A stretch of 64,000 bases of DNA from a virus. Taxonomy: Duplodnaviria > Heunggongvirae > Uroviricota > Caudoviricetes. Positions 22,496 to 36,491 of this stretch are shown here, in pieces; within the stretch, counting starts at the first letter, position 1; every line of letters starts with the position of its first letter. A program made the translations under genes and the position numbers. The stretch covers positions 46,159 through 110,158 of IMG/VR virus record IMGVR_UViG_3300042896_000947; one strand, given 5' to 3'. The notes beneath the pieces are model-generated. The model did not search any database. It saw only the letters and a list, made by a program, of their open reading frames with translations, and was not told the DNA's origin.

Positions 22496-22720
22496 TGGGC
22501 AAAATCGGAGCGCCCAGTCATGGACCGCCGCCGAATACAAAATCTGCCGACTCTCAGTCAAGGACCAGAGCCGAATACAAAATCGGCCCCGCCCCGCTGC
22601 GCCGCCGACTCTCAGTCAAGGACCGCTGCCGAATACAAAAATCGGCCCGCCGAGTCCTGGTCATCATCCTGGTCTTGGTCCTGGTTTGCGTCCTCCCGGG
22701 AGTCCTGAATTGCGGGCGCA

Positions 22721-22741
22721 AAAAAGGGGTCCGAAGACCCC
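22721..22741 (-). terminator. Intrinsic terminator GGGGUCUUCGGACCCC + U6 ending the cassette array
   Basis: Minus-strand hairpin plus T-run immediately after the stop at 22769. Confidence 0.6.
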
Positions 22742-22768
22742 GTGCTGAAAAGGGCTTGCGCCCTCTTT

Positions 22769-23095
22769 TTAGACCCCGCCCAGCATCTGCCCCAAAACCC
22801 GCTCTGTGATTTTGTTCGCGTAGAACAGAGCAGCTTCTACCGGGTCATTGAACGCCCATGCAGCGCGAAATGTGAACTGATCAAGGGTCGAGTGACCATC
22901 GAAGAAGAAAACCCAGTCATCGGGCTCTGTGACCTCGTAATGGTCAACCACAAAGGTGGTCGCGCCCTCGTCTGACTCGTAAGCGTCGATTGAAAAATAA
23001 TGCTTGCCCTGCGTGACAACAAAATTGCCCCCATCGGTCGATGCGCTGCAAGTAGCGACGAGTTCAGCGATTTCGGTGAGTGTGAGATTTTTCAT
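22769..23095 (-). CDS. Cassette gene, small acidic hypothetical protein (108 aa)
   Basis: Start MKNLTLTEIAELV preceded by the conserved leader GAGATAATTGATACTTCAACAACACAAGGTCTT-ATG. Confidence 0.5.
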   Translation of the reverse strand: MKNLTLTEIAELVATCSASTDGGNFVVTQGKHYFSIDAYESDEGATTFVVDHYEVTEPDDWVFFFDGHSTLDQFTFRAAWAFNDPVEAALFYANKITERVLGQMLGGV

Positions 23096-23213
23096 AAGAC
23101 CTTGTGTTGTTGAAGTATCAATTATCTCGGGGTGCTGTCGGATTTGACGCTTCAAAACCGGCCCTGAAAACCCTCTTCGGACCCGGGTTAGGACCAGCTG
23201 AGCCTAGGATCGG

Positions 23214-23303
23214 GAGCCTGAGCCTGAGCCTGAGCCTGAGCCTGAGCCTGAGCCTGAGCCTGAGCCTGAGCCTGAGCCTGAGCCTGAGCCTGAGCCTGAG
23301 CCT
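23214..23303. repeat. (GAGCCT)15 hexanucleotide microsatellite
   Basis: Counted directly: 15 perfect units. Confidence 0.9.
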
Positions 23304-23352
23304 AAGTTCTGGGCGAAGAAAAAGGACCGAAGCCCCATTTCCTCCCTTGCGC

Positions 23353-23727
23353 TTATTCGCGGTACGCTTTGTCTCGGCCCAGGGCTTTGTGCAGCGCAAT
23401 CGCATCACGAACGGCAGTGCCCGTCTCTGCAAGCCCCCAGACATCGGAACCGGTGCTGATGGTCACGTCCCATGTCTCAGAGCGTTCGGCAGTCTCTGCA
23501 TCTTCCCCGCTGTGCGTCTGGTAGGAGATGGTCACCATACCCTCGTCGGAGTCGTGACAGGCGTAGAAGTAGTGCTGGGTGTCACGCTCGCAAAACGGCG
23601 CGCACACGGTCATGCTGTGGTCGGCGCTGGTCTCGAAAAACTGCATGTTCCCGTGCAGGCCCGGGTTGGTCGGGATTGCAAAGGCGGGAGAGAGGGCGAT
23701 AATGATGGAGTCGAATCGTGAGGGCAT
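23353..23727 (-). CDS. Cassette gene, hypothetical protein (124 aa)
   Basis: Start MPSRFDS chosen because the leader ..GGTACAACACCACAGGTTCTCCAA-ATG matches the conserved box. The palindrome TGTCAG-ga-CTGACTGA (23790-23805) lies just upstream. Confidence 0.45.
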   Translation of the reverse strand: MPSRFDSIIIALSPAFAIPTNPGLHGNMQFFETSADHSMTVCAPFCERDTQHYFYACHDSDEGMVTISYQTHSGEDAETAERSETWDVTISTGSDVWGLAETGTAVRDAIALHKALGRDKAYRE

Positions 23728-23823
23728 TTGGAGAACCTGTGGTGTTGTACCGGGAAACCGCTTCCCGATACATTGATTATGGGGGCACATGTCAGGACTG
23801 ACTGATTCAGACCAGGCTGTGAA

Positions 23824-24057
23824 TCAGCGAATGCGGTAGATGCCCCGGGTTTGGCCCGTCGACCAGCTCTTCGGCTTGCTCAGCTGGTGGTAGATCAGGC
23901 TCAGAAGCGAGAGCGTCACCAGCAGGCCCAGCGCAAGCAGGCAGTTGTTGCGCTCGCCGAGTGCAGCGAAGACCAGCGAGGTGGCGCCCGCAGCGATGGC
24001 GCACAAGCCCGCAATGAGGGTCATGGCGGTGTAGTAAAAGGCGTGCGGTGATTTCAT
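23824..24057 (-). CDS. Cassette gene, small membrane protein (77 aa)
   Basis: MKSPHAFYYTAMTLIAGL.., two predicted TM helices. Conserved leader GACAATTGAGACTCAACAACACAGGGTCTCAC-ATG. Confidence 0.5.
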   Translation of the reverse strand: MKSPHAFYYTAMTLIAGLCAIAAGATSLVFAALGERNNCLLALGLLVTLSLLSLIYHQLSKPKSWSTGQTRGIYRIR

Positions 24058-24160
24058 GTGAGACCCTGTGTTGTTGAGTCTCAATTGTCTCGACCTAGCA
24101 TAGGCTATGCTGCCCTACCCCAGGCTGCGATTGACCGCGTCCTGAGCCTAATTTAAGGGC

Positions 24161-34505: not shown

Positions 34506-35150
34506 TCAAGCGCAGTTCTTGGCGCTGAATGCTTCTGCGACCTCGGTCCAATTGATGTTCATGCGCTCGCGCCAGCGCATGCTGTAGCGGTCGAACTCGT
34601 CCGGCACGGCCAGCGGGTGAACGTAGGCCCAGTCGTCGATCACCAGCTTGGCATGCTGAAACGCCTTCTTGACCTTGTTAGGGTTGACGCTGCCGTCCTG
34701 GCGCCGCATCCCGGGCAGGCTGCCCATGAAGCCCTTGCATTGGCTCAGGTACAGGTGCGCGAGAAAGGTCGAAGCGTTGCTGTAGCCACAGTGTTTGGGG
34801 ATAGGCGTCGCCCATGCCTGCTCGGCAAATGCGTCCCAGCGCTGCTGCTTGAGTTCGCGCAGGCTGAAAGGCAGCGAGACGCCCGGGACGTAGTGCCCGC
34901 CGCCCTTGCTGACAAGCTCCAGGGTGTGCAGCTTGACGAAGTGGTCTTCCACATCCGAGCCGCCGGCCGTGAGCTTGACGCAATGCGCCTGCTCCGCCTC
35001 GGTCTGCCAGTGGTACTTCTTGCGCAGCGACAGGACCACGCAGCCTTCTTCGGCCGGGTAGGTGAATGTGCGATCCGGGTACAGCGAAGGCGTCTTGCGG
35101 TGCTCCTTGATGCGCACCGTGTCGCCCGCCTCGATAATGAGGGCGTTCAT
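34506..35150 (-). CDS. Hypothetical protein (214 aa), possibly ASCH/PUA-like
   Basis: Start MNALIIEAGDTVRIKEHRKT (ATGA overlap). Only weak resemblance to an ASCH motif. Confidence 0.4.
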   Translation of the reverse strand: MNALIIEAGDTVRIKEHRKTPSLYPDRTFTYPAEEGCVVLSLRKKYHWQTEAEQAHCVKLTAGGSDVEDHFVKLHTLELVSKGGGHYVPGVSLPFSLRELKQQRWDAFAEQAWATPIPKHCGYSNASTFLAHLYLSQCKGFMGSLPGMRRQDGSVNPNKVKKAFQHAKLVIDDWAYVHPLAVPDEFDRYSMRWRERMNINWTEVAEAFSAKNCA

Positions 35151-35323
35151 GCGCCCGCCTTGGGCAGCGCATCGCGCACCGTGCAGCCGAGCGGCCACTG
35201 CAGGCCGTGGGTCAGGGGTGGCGGGTTCGGGTCGAGCCGGCGCTGCTCCATATCCCAAGCCCACGATCCTTTGTAGGGTGTGATCGGCATCTGCTTGCCG
35301 TTGATGACAGGTCCGTAGCCCAT
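35147..35323 (-). CDS. Small hypothetical protein (58 aa, MGYGPVINGKQMPITPYKG..)
   Basis: Found by manual translation. Overlapping start and stop with both neighbours. Confidence 0.3.
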   Translation of the reverse strand: MGYGPVINGKQMPITPYKGSWAWDMEQRRLDPNPPPLTHGLQWPLGCTVRDALPKAGA

Positions 35324-35568
35324 CACGCAGCCTCTGTCTGGTTGAGCAGCTGCACCGCCTCTTTTTCAGAGACAGTGCAGCACTCCATTGTTTTTTGAAT
35401 CAGCCCGTCGATCGAGGACTTGCAGCCCTCCAGCGAATCAGGGTAAGTGCCGCCGACCACCGAAAAGCCGGTCTTGAACACCGGCTTGACCGGCGAGTGT
35501 TCAGTCTTTCCGATGTTGATGGCGTCCAGCCATTTGACCTTCACAATCTTCACGCCGCGGTGCTTCAT
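35323..35568 (-). CDS. Cassette gene, small protein (81 aa)
   Basis: Start MKHRGVKIVKVKW. Leader GACACTTGAATTTAGCAACCAACAAGGGGAATTT-ATG. Confidence 0.5.
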   Translation of the reverse strand: MKHRGVKIVKVKWLDAINIGKTEHSPVKPVFKTGFSVVGGTYPDSLEGCKSSIDGLIQKTMECCTVSEKEAVQLLNQTEAA

Positions 35569-35623
35569 AAATTCCCCTTGTTGGTTGCTAAATTCAAGTG
35601 TCGAGCGCACCTCTCGGCAGCGC

Positions 35624-35839
35624 TCACCACGTCCCGGCTGCGTTGCTGGCAACGAACACCACGGGCGGCGGGACAGCGGTGCGGTCAAGCGCATCGGCGC
35701 GCGCCAGGGCCATGAAGCCGTCGCGTGAGATTTCCGACATTTCGACCCAAACGGCGAAGGCAATCACCTGTGTGTCGGCAGTGCGCCCAGCCGCGCCGAC
35801 GTAGGCGTCATAGCTTTGCTGGTCGGCGTGCATGTTCAT
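35624..35839 (-). CDS. Small hypothetical protein (71 aa)
   Basis: Start MNMHADQQ overlaps the upstream stop (TGATG). Confidence 0.35.
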   Translation of the reverse strand: MNMHADQQSYDAYVGAAGRTADTQVIAFAVWVEMSEISRDGFMALARADALDRTAVPPPVVFVASNAAGTW

Positions 35840-36153
35840 CACCCCCGCAGCCGCGTCAGCACCGTGACCTTGCCGCCGGGTGCCAGCTGGGCAATCCACT
35901 TGCGGGCCGCCGCAATTGCCTCGGCGCGGCTGCACACGAAGCCGGTGACGGTACGGTTCAGGCTCGGGCGCTCGGCATAGGTCTTGGTGACCGTCGCGAA
36001 GACGCCGCGCTTGAAGCCAAACAGGGTGCGGCGCACATCATTGAGGCGTGTCACGCCCGGCACACCAAAGCGGTACTCCTGGTCGTTTTTCAGAAACACG
36101 GCGGTGTTCAGCTCCGGCGCGTAGGTGTGGGTGATAAGGCGAATCAGTTTCAT
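35839..36153 (-). CDS. First cassette gene (104 aa)
   Basis: Start MKLIRLITHTYAPELN. Leader AGTCAGAATTGACTCAACACAAAAGGGATTT-ATG, where the palindrome and the AATTGA box merge. Confidence 0.5.
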   Translation of the reverse strand: MKLIRLITHTYAPELNTAVFLKNDQEYRFGVPGVTRLNDVRRTLFGFKRGVFATVTKTYAERPSLNRTVTGFVCSRAEAIAAARKWIAQLAPGGKVTVLTRLRG

Positions 36154-36171
36154 AAAATCCCTTTTGTGTTG

Positions 36172-36185
36172 AGTCAATTCTGACT
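36172..36185. promoter_or_regulatory. Palindrome AGTCA-attc-TGACT at the head of the cassette array
   Basis: Seen directly. Confidence 0.55.
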
Positions 36186-36191
36186 GACACG

Positions 36192-36491
36192 TTACGGCGT
36201 CTTGATCACGCGCGTTTCAAACATGGCACCCGCCTTGGGGTACTCGTCCATAAATAGCCTGGCATAGTGGCAGGTGAAGCGGTTGTCGATCTTGAACGGC
36301 TTGCCGGCCGTCACCGACCAGCCCGCGCCGGTTGTGGTGATGGTGCATTCCCAGCGAATCCGCTCGATCAGCAGCTTGGAGGACAGGCGCTTGACGCCGG
36401 CCCGGATGGCCTCGGCGGCAAAGCGCTTGAACAAGCCATACACGCCAGGATTCGCCGCGTGAAAGGTCAGAAACTTGTCCTTGACAGTCAT
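36192..36491 (-). CDS. Hypothetical protein (99 aa)
   Basis: RBS AAGGAG. Coupled to the upstream ATPase gene. Confidence 0.5.
   Translation of the reverse strand: MTVKDKFLTFHAANPGVYGLFKRFAAEAIRAGVKRLSSKLLIERIRWECTITTTGAGWSVTAGKPFKIDNRFTCHYARLFMDEYPKAGAMFETRVIKTP

Follow-up and report, generated by a model that had tools for sequence, protein, structure and literature searches.

A promoter-like leader module repeated before some twenty small-gene units suggests recombinational shuffling of accessory genes in an SSU5-type siphophage

The 64,000 nucleotides analysed here (positions 46,159 to 110,158 of the IMG/VR virus record IMGVR_UViG_3300042896_000947, called the window below) have a GC content of 62% and most probably represent 64 kb of a ~110-kb siphophage genome from the SSU5/RHEph10/nickie supergroup. 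The minus strand carries, from 36.2 down to 22.7 kb, an array of about 20 units of small genes (U1 to U20, Table 1), 19 of which open with one common module of ~50 nt. The array has a left half (22.7-27.1 kb) and a right half (29.9-36.2 kb), with an interruption between the two. The module, and what it may do for the genes behind it, are the subject of this study.

The array encodes 31 open reading frames (ORFs) of 58-214 aa, a wider range than the 57-170 aa given in an earlier note on this DNA. As that note had it, the proteins are mostly acidic (pI < 5.5 in 19 of the 31), one is NinX-like (33702-34070), and neighbouring ORFs are coupled, by ATGA or GTGA overlaps; several right-half units hold 2-4 overlapping ORFs. 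The description of the proteins as mutually unrelated stands apart from one paralogous pair, formed by the C-termini of the 29609 and 30553 proteins (E = 7e-7). The domain searches and structure prediction that had been proposed yielded no annotated family but NinX. Pfam assigned this one domain over the 31 ORFs, PHROGs gave five assignments of unknown function, and the confident alpha/beta model (pLDDT 82) of the 33440 protein of U4, whose family is the best populated with 13 members, has no meaningful match in the PDB. The left-half cargo differs in base composition from the genome (GC 50-57% versus 62%), and its only homologues in 50 related loci are found in L174, a related contig described below, apart from a weak match of the 25347 protein in L151 (29%). 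The cargo is hypervariable, as claimed: against L174, whole cassettes have been replaced, gained or lost. Part of the right-half cargo is conserved in relatives. An anti-defence or host-takeover role for the cargo is a reasonable guess. One further family of small cargo proteins (..EQGFYIEDMxxEWGP..YRWMN..FQQDW..) does not occur in the window; L174 has it twice (7093-7296, 7372-7614) and L122 once (~9984-9750), behind a leader module in each case.

The near-identical terminators reported before are real for seven units, all of them in the left half, where GGGGCTTCGGCCCC-type hairpins follow the genes. Six of these hairpins (26746, 26226, 25784, 24182, 23336, 22741) carry the T-run that qualifies them as intrinsic terminators; as RNA, the left-half terminators carry a C(UUCG)G tetraloop. 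A further hairpin, AGGGCGCAAGCCCT, sits beside the 22741 terminator. The T-run is missing from the copy at 25072-25085 and from one at about 51440. The left-half terminators lie 60-230 nt upstream of the next promoter-like motif. Because they stand between the units, each gene there needs its own promoter. The right half has no canonical terminators and shows hairpins without U-runs instead. The spacers between cassettes are homologous, as also stated earlier, and fall into the repeat families D2 (37 nt, 8 copies), D3 (54 nt, 4 copies), D4 (66 nt, 3 copies) and D10 (TAAGCACCGGGGCTTCGGCCC, 22 nt), the last being 100% identical in its two copies and starting with the stop codon of the preceding gene. 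Between U19 and U20, a tandem repeat of GGCTCA (~18 units) occupies 23202-23310, and a GGCTCA run likewise closes L174. Only in the spacers at 22-30 kb do the short words TAGGCY, TTCGGCY and AGGCTCA occur.

Table 1. Units of the array, its interruption, and strict copies of the bipartite motif outside it (positions in the window). Modules are given as box, spacer and hexamer; CDS, coding sequence.
Feature	Position (strand)	Module or motif	ORFs	Terminator or other features	Relatives
U1	35624..36198 (-)	36154-36198: GCCGTA, N10, CAGAAT	35839-36153 (104 aa), 35624-35833 (69 aa)	Palindrome AGTCAGAATTGACT overlapping module	L174 orthologues, 84% and 45% aa identity
U2	34506..35618 (-)	35569-35618: GCCGAG, N10, GACACT	Coupled: 35323-35568 (81 aa), 35147-35323 (58 aa), 34506-35150 (214 aa)		L174: first two ORFs conserved, 214-aa ORF replaced
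U3	33514..34523 (-)	34472-34523: GCCAAG, N10, GACAAT	34067-34471 (134 aa), 33702-34070 (122 aa, NinX), 33514-33705 (63 aa)		Wholly absent from L174, NinX included
U4	33060..33494 (-)	33441-33494: GCCTGA, N10, GACAAT, then ATCGAAACC	33060-33440 (126 aa)		Protein orthologues in L174 (76%) and L122 (53%)
U5	31819..33038 (-)	32991-33038: GCCGAC, N10, GACAAT	Four coupled: 32730-32990 (86 aa), 32536-32733 (65 aa), 32279-32554 (91 aa), 31819-32289 (156 aa)		L174: replaced by 244-aa ORF and small ORF with own leader; first ORF conserved in L122, L130, L155
U6	31499..31809 (-)	31757-31809: GCCGAC, N10, GACAATTGAATCTCAACAACA	31499-31756 (85 aa)		L174: leader 97%, CDS 88% identity
U7	31087..31493 (-)	31432-31493: GCCGAG, N10, GACAAT	31087-31431 (114 aa)	GGACAA/TTGTCC inverted repeat in 40-nt leader	L174: leader 88%, CDS 70% identity
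U8 (deviant)	30632..31081 (-)	GCCTGA, N8, CACAAT (31062-31067)	30632-31027 (131 aa; phrog_889, unknown function)	Different leader, GGAG Shine-Dalgarno	Absent from L174
U9	30044..30607 (-)	30554-30607: GCCGAG, N10, CACAAT	30044-30553 (169 aa)	Leader without CAACAAC	Absent from L174
U10	29154..29956 (-)	29903-29956: GCCGAG, N10, GACAAT, then ATCGAAACAAC	29606-29902 (98 aa), 29154-29609 (151 aa)		Orthologous in L174
Interruption	27070..29153 (-)		27557-27931 and one starting at 28274 (-), without CA-rich leader	Non-coding 27070-27556 and 28275-29153	
U11	26719..27119 (-)	27070-27119: GCCTAG, N10, GACACT	26749-27069 (106 aa)	Terminator GGGAGGGCTTCGGCCCTTCCC + T8, 26719-26746 (hairpin 26727-26746)	Absent from L174
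U12	26208..26545 (-)	26499-26545: GCCTAG, N10, GATAAT	26232-26498 (88 aa)	Terminator GGGGCTTCGGCCCC + T5, 26208-26226 (hairpin 26213-26226)	Absent from L174
U13	25763..26151 (-)	26102-26151: GCCTAG, N10, GATAAT	25786-26101 (104 aa)	Terminator 25767-25784	L174 orthologue, 64% aa identity
U14	25423..25672 (-)	25624-25672: GCCTAG, N10, GACAAT	25423-25623 (66 aa)		Cargo replaced in L174
U15	25072..25398 (-)	25348-25398: GCCTGC, N10, GACAAT	25090-25347 (85 aa)	GGGGCTTCGGCCC hairpin without T-run, 25072-25085	Cargo replaced in L174
U16	24583..24862 (-)	24811-24862: GCCTGG, N10, GACACT	24583-24810 (75 aa, pI 4.1)		
U17	24165..24556 (-)	24503-24556: GCCTGC, N10, GATACT	24188-24502 (104 aa)	Terminator 24169-24182	
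U18	23824..24105 (-)	24058-24105: GCCTAT, N10, GACAAT	23824-24057 (77 aa, hydrophobic)		L174 orthologue, 49% aa identity
U19	23319..23797 (-)	Relaxed, box at 23797: TCCTGA, N10, CATAAT	23353-23727 (124 aa)	Long, hairpin-bearing leader, then ACAACACCACAGGTTCTCCAA; repeat family D17; terminator 23323-23336	
U20	22720..23142 (-)	23096-23142, relaxed: TCCGAC, N10, GATAAT	22769-23095 (108 aa)	Two terminators, 22751-22764 and 22726-22741	
Bipartite site	37014..37089 (-)	GCCTGA, N10, CATAAT	Upstream of ATPase gene 36504-37013	After terminator near 37290	
Two bipartite sites	39038..39231 (-)	GCC 39231 with CACAAT; GCC 39126 with GACAAT	Upstream of gene 37802-39037	Follow a terminator	
Bipartite site	40997..41047 (-)	GCCTGA, N10, GACAAT		Then palindrome AGTCACCGCTGACT	
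Bipartite site	51512 (-), in 51355..51512	GCCAGC, N10, TATAAT		AGTCA palindrome	
Bipartite site	51419 (-), in 51355..51512	GCCGAG, N10, GACAATTGATTTGTCGAAACC	Upstream of ATG 51354		
Bipartite site	52289..52324 (-)	GCCGAA, N10, TATAAT		AGTCAGAAATGACT palindrome	

From its upstream end, the module consists of a (G/T)CC box, 10 nt, a GAYAAT-type hexamer, ~7 nt, an A/C-rich leader with the core CAACAAC or ATCGAAAC, a GAAAGG-type Shine-Dalgarno sequence and the ATG. The hexamer lies 24-40 nt before the ATG, and the Shine-Dalgarno sequence (GAAAGG or AAGG) 5-8 nt before it. All 20 minus-strand ATGs for which a common leader had been listed are preceded by the sequence described. The ~40-nt leader recognised at that time is real, but it is only the 3' part of the module, and the GCC box had been missed. 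The expectation of one module per unit is true of 19 units; U8 deviates by its 8-nt spacing and a different leader.

When 29 copies from the window and L174 were aligned on the hexamer, a conserved GCC appeared 16 nt upstream of the hexamer's first base, and many copies had a second GCC 20 nt further upstream. The hexamer reads [G/C]A[C/T]A[A/C]T, with A2, A4 and T6 invariant. Written as GCC-N14-AYAMT, the motif has 26 sites on the minus strand and two on the plus strand of the window, compared with 3.5 +/- 1.7 in shuffled sequences, and the neighbouring spacings (N9-N13 and N15-N19) gave 0-3 minus-strand matches each. The strict form is present in 17 of the 20 units; U1 (36198), U19 (23797) and U20 (23142) have a relaxed form, with TCC or CAGAAT. 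A relaxed pattern, (G/T)CC with ANA(A/C/T)T, adds seven sites, namely these three and four at 47.6-62.2 kb. None of the 26 strict sites falls in the structural-gene region (0-16 kb). The two relaxed sites there (6623, 6593) lie inside the 5698-6603 reading frame as called, or overlap its start, and are read as chance matches.

The leader was also recognised by other means. The pattern AATTGA-N2-8-TCAACAACA had five matches, versus none in shuffles. A hidden Markov model (HMM) of the leader matched only the minus strand at 23.1-36.2 kb, besides weak matches at 41038 and 51406, a result that is partly circular because the matches are its training sequences. A 15-base leader pattern was too unspecific across IMG/VR and gave single chance matches only. 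The leader is rich in A (42%) and C (25%) and poorer in U (17%) and G (16%), has no consensus structure (32 sequences from four phages), and folds with only -1 to -4 kcal/mol. Leaders were not less folded than shuffles of the same composition (mean z = 0.14), and their lack of structure thus stems from composition, not arrangement. Two of them can form a 6-bp stem that sequesters the Shine-Dalgarno sequence around the loop CAACAACA, which the other leaders do not: AGACCU/AGGUCU in U11 (27070-27119, z = -4.9) and GAGACU/GGUCUC in U18 (24058-24105, z = -2.6).

The motif is not private to the array. Nine of the 26 strict sites lie outside it, after terminators and before genes: those at 37-42 kb precede the ATPase gene and other genes, and those at 51-52 kb precede genes next to the ribonucleotide reductase, while relaxed sites reach 62 kb. 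A dedicated regulon, as proposed in the earlier note, can therefore be set aside; the motif marks a genome-wide class within the non-structural region, of which the array is the densest part. The best explanation is that the same class of putative promoter also drives the upstream replication and nucleotide-metabolism genes. Of two outside leader copies named before, the one at 51354 is genuine, with a 46-nt leader, whereas the resemblance of the plus-strand copy at 18538 is confined to the AAAACAACAAGGACACC-ATG part. The ATPase that adjoins the array had no relatives but itself in IMG/VR and in a set of 5.8 billion proteins.

A second motif, the palindrome AGTCA-N4-TGAC(T), has 39 strand matches where 0.9 would be expected, which correspond to ~21 intergenic sites in the window (3123, 5667, 6630, 9154, 16710, 21274, 23791, 30614, 31074, 33020, 36172, 39108, 41010, 42512, 44629, 46121, 51472, 52283, 54701, 60311 and 61430). 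It mostly follows directly after a -10-like hexamer (e.g. TATAAT-aaaat-CAGTCAcaacTGACT) and also occurs in the late-gene region. The related AGTCAAAACTGA has eight copies in the loci L131 and L136. The AGTCA palindrome may serve a global phage regulator as its operator, or else form a hairpin at the 5' end of the mRNA.

Relatives were gathered with the helicase as probe (44 viral and 6 genomic loci), and L174, an 8.6-kb contig, was reached through the homologue of the 33440 protein that it encodes (76% identity). Searched by megablast, the array had no match in 50,697 phage records. The scan of related phages proposed earlier recovered the module: on the array strand, sites peak at the N14 spacing in L174 (10 sites, with 0-1 at other spacings), L124 (6), L126 (8), L144 (8), L162 (6) and L158 (4). 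These copies take the form (G/T)CCnnn, N10, nAYAAT, N6-9, ATCG(A/C)AACAAC.., (C)GAAAGG, N5-8, ATG, and they occupy the same syntenic place in relatives of 46-62% GC (L124 has 46%). A cross-phage HMM matches the array strand only. In SSU5 we found eight copies of GATAAT(T/A)AACnCCAACAAGAAAACAA..GGAG..ATG, with a CC(T/G)TT box 9-10 nt upstream and, in six of the eight, a TGn extended -10 element; RHEph10 has weaker copies with the hexamer CTAAT or CTAAAT. From host to host it is the hexamer that differs (GATAAT in Salmonella, CTAAT in Rhizobium); the remainder of the module is unchanged.

L174 is colinear with the window from 36.5 to 23.8 kb and differs from it cassette by cassette. Conservation of the leader equals or exceeds that of the coding sequence (identities of 97 and 88%, 88 and 70%, 87 and 73%, 85 and 74%, and 75 and 64% for leader and coding sequence, respectively). 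U3, U8 together with U9, U11 and U12 are absent from L174, and the cargo of U5, U14 and U15 is replaced. In U15, an unrelated 80-aa ORF substitutes the 85-aa ORF exactly from start to stop codon, between a hairpin and leader that are 90% identical and a terminator and spacer that are 83% identical. Where the U12 cassette (26232-26498 and spacer) is missing, L174 matches the U12 spacer upstream and the U13 leader and gene downstream, and the crossover lies inside a shared 27-nt leader segment, TAGCCTAGGGTAGGGTCAGATAATTGA. These differences bear what looks like the signature of homologous recombination between repeated regulatory modules.

We therefore favour, with a probability of roughly 0.7, a reading of the array as a hyperplastic accessory-gene region that would be built of compact modules of promoter, leader and ribosome-binding site and shuffled by recombination at these repeats. 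It builds on the motif and its spacing, the bias of strand and position, the conservation in relatives, and the cassette polymorphisms with breakpoints in repeats. From the form of the motif we infer that it is a promoter, and where transcription would start. Each of the ~20 mono- or oligocistronic units would be driven by its own ~50-nt module, with a start ~7 nt after the hexamer. Given the distance of the hexamer from the ATG, such a start would leave a 5' untranslated region of 18-35 nt, the A/C-rich, G-poor, structure-free leader. The left-half genes would form separate transcription units bounded by the intrinsic terminators. As direct repeats of ~50-130 nt, the modules would be substrates for homologous recombination, and crossovers in leaders or terminator spacers would delete, insert or replace whole ORFs and leave the expression signals untouched.

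Several points weigh against this reading. The promoter call is a matter of sequence logic, and the window copies do not demonstrate a plain sigma-70 promoter: a sigma-70 consensus promoter scan misses the sites, and there is no TTGACA-like -35 element at 17 nt and no TGn in the window copies. Compared with the sigma-70-type TAnnnT, the hexamer [G/C]AYAAT keeps A2 and T6, the most important positions of a -10 element, but its first base is G or C, not T. In the right half, the lack of canonical terminators makes read-through polycistronic transcription possible. The Xanthomonas phage JGB6, of the same supergroup, has no obvious repeated leader. As to the shuffling, the comparison draws on one reasonably close relative, L174. 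L176 and L177, two further assemblies of this phage, do not differ from the window and gave no polymorphism, and a second public sample has the phage at 100% identity; two independent samples agree fully over the array, which gives no sign that shuffling is going on in the population.

The rigid 10-nt spacing excludes a canonical -35/-10 pair, and together with the -10-like hexamer and the GCC box it leaves the earlier suggestion of a phage-specific promoter plausible. This leads to a tentative refinement of the promoter reading, to which we give less than even odds: the GCC box would be read not by the unaided host sigma-70 holoenzyme but by phage-directed machinery. Candidates are a phage sigma factor and a phage activator that binds the GCC box (~-28) and may or may not also remodel sigma region 4, in the manner of T4 MotA/AsiA. 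The T4 middle promoters, of which there are nearly 60 copies, combine a -10 element with a MotA box, (a/t)(a/t)(a/t)TGCTTtA, at 12 +/- 1 bp (PMC2988021). The sites described here likewise join a -10-type hexamer to a box that is closer than a -35 element, at a rigid 10 rather than 17 nt, and number dozens in the non-structural part of the genome; the box is GCCKR and not TGCTT, however, and only the architecture is analogous. The refinement is also favoured by a GCC/TCC box that keeps its sequence and spacing across phages of 46-62% GC, loosely including SSU5, though their hosts differ, and by the second upstream GCC. The absence of the strict motif from the late structural region further suggests a temporal class. 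On the other hand, no sigma, RNA polymerase, MotA or AsiA family was detected among the ~100 proteins of the window, which covers 64 of ~110 kb and leaves 46 kb of the genome outside, and such factors are small and divergent; the phage sigma factor or RNA polymerase named in the earlier note as a reader thus found no candidate gene in the window. Moreover, the TGn extended -10 elements of SSU5 could work with sigma-70 alone.

A broader version has slightly lower odds. The module might be a lineage-specific expression system of the whole SSU5/RHEph10 supergroup of phages and phage-plasmids, in which a phage factor (a MotA-like activator or a sigma-like protein) redirects the host RNA polymerase to the GCC box and a second factor reads the leader. 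Possible leader readers are ribosomal protein S1 or a 132-aa phage protein at 55562-55960 (-) with a Phage_ProQ_C_like domain (PF24203, E = 1.4e-13), itself a possible phage RNA-binding protein. If this were true, any ORF recombined between two modules would be expressed at once and on the phage's schedule.

An unlikely alternative is that the repeat is no promoter and acts only at the RNA level in read-through transcripts, as a translational enhancer and ribosome-binding site or as a processing site, with hairpins protecting the 3' ends. With its structure-free A/C-rich leader, the module's 3' part is clearly a region of ribosome binding, the right half would permit read-through, and repeats tied to start codons have a precedent in the start-associated sequences (SAS/ESAS) of Cluster K mycobacteriophages, a 13-bp GGGATAGGAGCCC-type repeat 3-7 bp upstream of the ATG (PMC3203893). 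Like the module, SAS are oriented repeats directly upstream of non-structural gene starts of unrelated families, contain the Shine-Dalgarno sequence, are accompanied by upstream inverted repeats in about half of the copies, and are conserved across subclusters. They lack a promoter-like part, in contrast to the ~50-nt repeat with its bipartite motif, and share no sequence similarity with it, so that the two would be functional analogues only. The most rigid feature of the module, GCC-N10-hexamer, lies upstream of the leader, and its spacing and -10-like positions are typical of DNA recognition. In addition, strong intrinsic terminators precede the left-half modules, and it is the hexamer that changes with the host, not the leader.

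Still less probable is that the repeat is a multi-copy operator of a phage repressor, comparable to the stoperators of Cluster A mycobacteriophages, which would silence the region in a plasmid-prophage state. Many oriented intergenic copies, in a supergroup that includes phage-plasmids, and the ParB genes and iteron-like repeats would suit such a role. A fixed distance to the ATG and fusion to a ribosome-binding site would be unexpected for stoperators, though; the palindrome AGTCA-N4-TGACT is the better operator candidate, and no repressor was identified. The least credible alternative, an integron-like array with the variable palindromes as attC-type sites for a site-specific recombinase, accounts for small unrelated ORFs separated by imperfect palindromes, and one study reportedly found integron elements in phages, but the window has no integrase or similar recombinase, integron cassettes are promoterless while those here each come with a promoter-like module, the form of the palindromes is not conserved, and the L174 crossover lies in 27 nt of plain identity, as for homologous recombination.

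Other candidates for the repeat were rejected. Taking the box as a -35 element (nTGACA) would place the -10 element on the Shine-Dalgarno sequence or the ATG, and the GCC-box spacing fits better. Sigma-54, sigma-28, sigma-32 and ECF promoters did not fit by eye in consensus and spacing. The promoter of a T7-like single-subunit polymerase is contradicted by patchy, bipartite conservation with a variable spacer and no contiguous block of 20-23 bp. Binding of CsrA or Hfq to the leader would be speculation, with the GGA motif absent and only 2-3 ARN triplets present.

The closest known system to the preferred promoter-module reading is that of the promoter-early stem-loops (PeSLs), composite terminator/promoter cassettes of T4-type myoviruses (Arbiol 2010, PMC2839356; Comeau 2014, PMC4122927). 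As in PeSLs, a repeated intergenic unit of stem-loop, promoter-like motif and Shine-Dalgarno sequence abuts the ATG (in 19 of the 20 units), the copies are concentrated in hyperplastic, ORFan-rich regions, and the endpoints of indels and replacements between related phages fall in the repeats, here with one comparator. The differences lie in the phage, an SSU5-supergroup siphophage of 62% GC instead of a T4-like myovirus; in the promoter, TTGACA-N17-TATAAT in PeSLs and a GCC box, 10 nt and GAYAAT here; in the additional conserved A/C-rich leader common to the whole supergroup; and in the terminator, which is directly adjacent in PeSLs and well upstream of the motif in the left half. New here are thus the phage lineage, the promoter architecture and the supergroup-wide conservation of the leader. 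In the halovirus HF2, intergenic repeat families proved to be promoters in reporter fusions (PMC8707807); as far as that account goes, this is an archaeal virus with archaeal promoter elements, and no link to cassette exchange is made. A literature search for SSU5 promoter motifs returned nothing relevant. The host-takeover module of Bacillus phage SPO1, reportedly described by Stewart et al. in 1998, is said to divide about two dozen small genes among many short operons, each of which has a strong early promoter of its own as well as a terminator and a strong ribosome-binding site; the gene functions are partly known. By this account it is similar in being a small-gene cluster divided into many short units with their own expression signals, and differs in its canonical sigma-A promoters and its location in the terminal redundancy. 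To our knowledge, recombinational shuffling has not been described for it.

If the promoter-module reading is right, it would supply a promoter/leader signature for a large, poorly studied supergroup of phages and phage-plasmids, including the SSU5-type elements of Enterobacteriaceae, and would make transcription units and temporal classes easier to annotate across hundreds of uncultivated genomes. Gene shuffling at regulatory repeats, known from T4-type phages, would extend to an unrelated siphophage lineage, with ORF replacement resolved to the nucleotide. The 10-nt spacing of the elements is a candidate new case of phage-directed promoter recognition. For screens of host interaction and counter-defence, the array offers a sensible starting set of ~30 small ORFans, most of them acidic and several foreign in base composition.

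The assignment of the phage is based on its gene content and order. Tape-measure protein, portal and large terminase are encoded at 0-10.5 kb on the minus strand, and the structural genes are followed by two ParB-like genes and a DEAD-box helicase (16743-18476, plus strand). From 22.7 to 64 kb nearly all genes are on the minus strand, among them NAMPT, PRPP synthetase, ThyX, dUTPase, pieces of a DNA polymerase, a class II ribonucleotide reductase, SbcCD, RNase H, RuvC and a UvsX/RecA protein. For portal and helicase, identity to the counterparts in Salmonella phage SSU5, Rhizobium phage RHEph10, Pseudomonas phage nickie and Xanthomonas/Stenotrophomonas phages (103-122 kb) is 41-50%, and the window has the order ParB, ParB, helicase and small minus-strand genes in common with these phages. 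Portal, terminase and tape-measure proteins, together with synteny, point to the SSU5, RHEph10 and nickie siphophages and not to a T4-like myovirus. Since the closest helicase relatives among bacterial genome bins are from Betaproteobacteria (50-57%), a betaproteobacterial host is likely. No tRNA genes or Rfam families were found.

The interruption of the array contains features of its own. At 27255-27370 (-), a long inverted repeat with GAGGTTGGACCCCCTGTAAAAG arms encloses two hairpins, and a third copy of the arm lies at ~27524. As RNA it folds to -82 kcal/mol (z = -6.9) with no match in Rfam, and it is ~95% identical in L174, where the flanks have diverged. A structured non-coding RNA is one possibility for this repeat, a DNA element (an origin or a cruciform, for instance) another. 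The 880-nt non-coding stretch at 28275-29153 has repeats of the words CGCTAAGC and AGGCTCA and a terminator at 28985-29015, and parts of it, e.g. AAAAAGCnTATgAATCAAcnACTTACGG and CCCCAATGGCG, are conserved in L174 (4631-5595) and L122 (9720-8290). Only 9 nt separate GCCGATAAT from the ATG of the gene that starts at 28274 (-), and 6 nt separate GGATAAT from the ATG of its L174 equivalent (5580-5597); were this hexamer a -10 element, the mRNA would have almost no leader. The ORF from 28274 runs in frame past the better-coding frame at 27557-27931, and a frameshift or a mis-call is possible.

The array borders on an AT-richer convergence zone (20600-22700) with iteron-like repeats. It contains the palindromes GCTATCA..TGATAGC at 20960-21120 and three copies of TCTTATATAAGA at 22100-22175, a 30-nt tandem repeat (22355-22440), 60-nt direct repeats (22510-22660), and a 202-aa gene (21302-21910) that matches no family and is conserved in L122. 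The zone may be a plasmid-type origin or partition region. At 47678-50179, NAMPT and PRPP synthetase form an NAD salvage pair; ThyX, dUTPase, a dCTP-deaminase-like protein and an Nmad5 nucleotide-modification domain are encoded as well.

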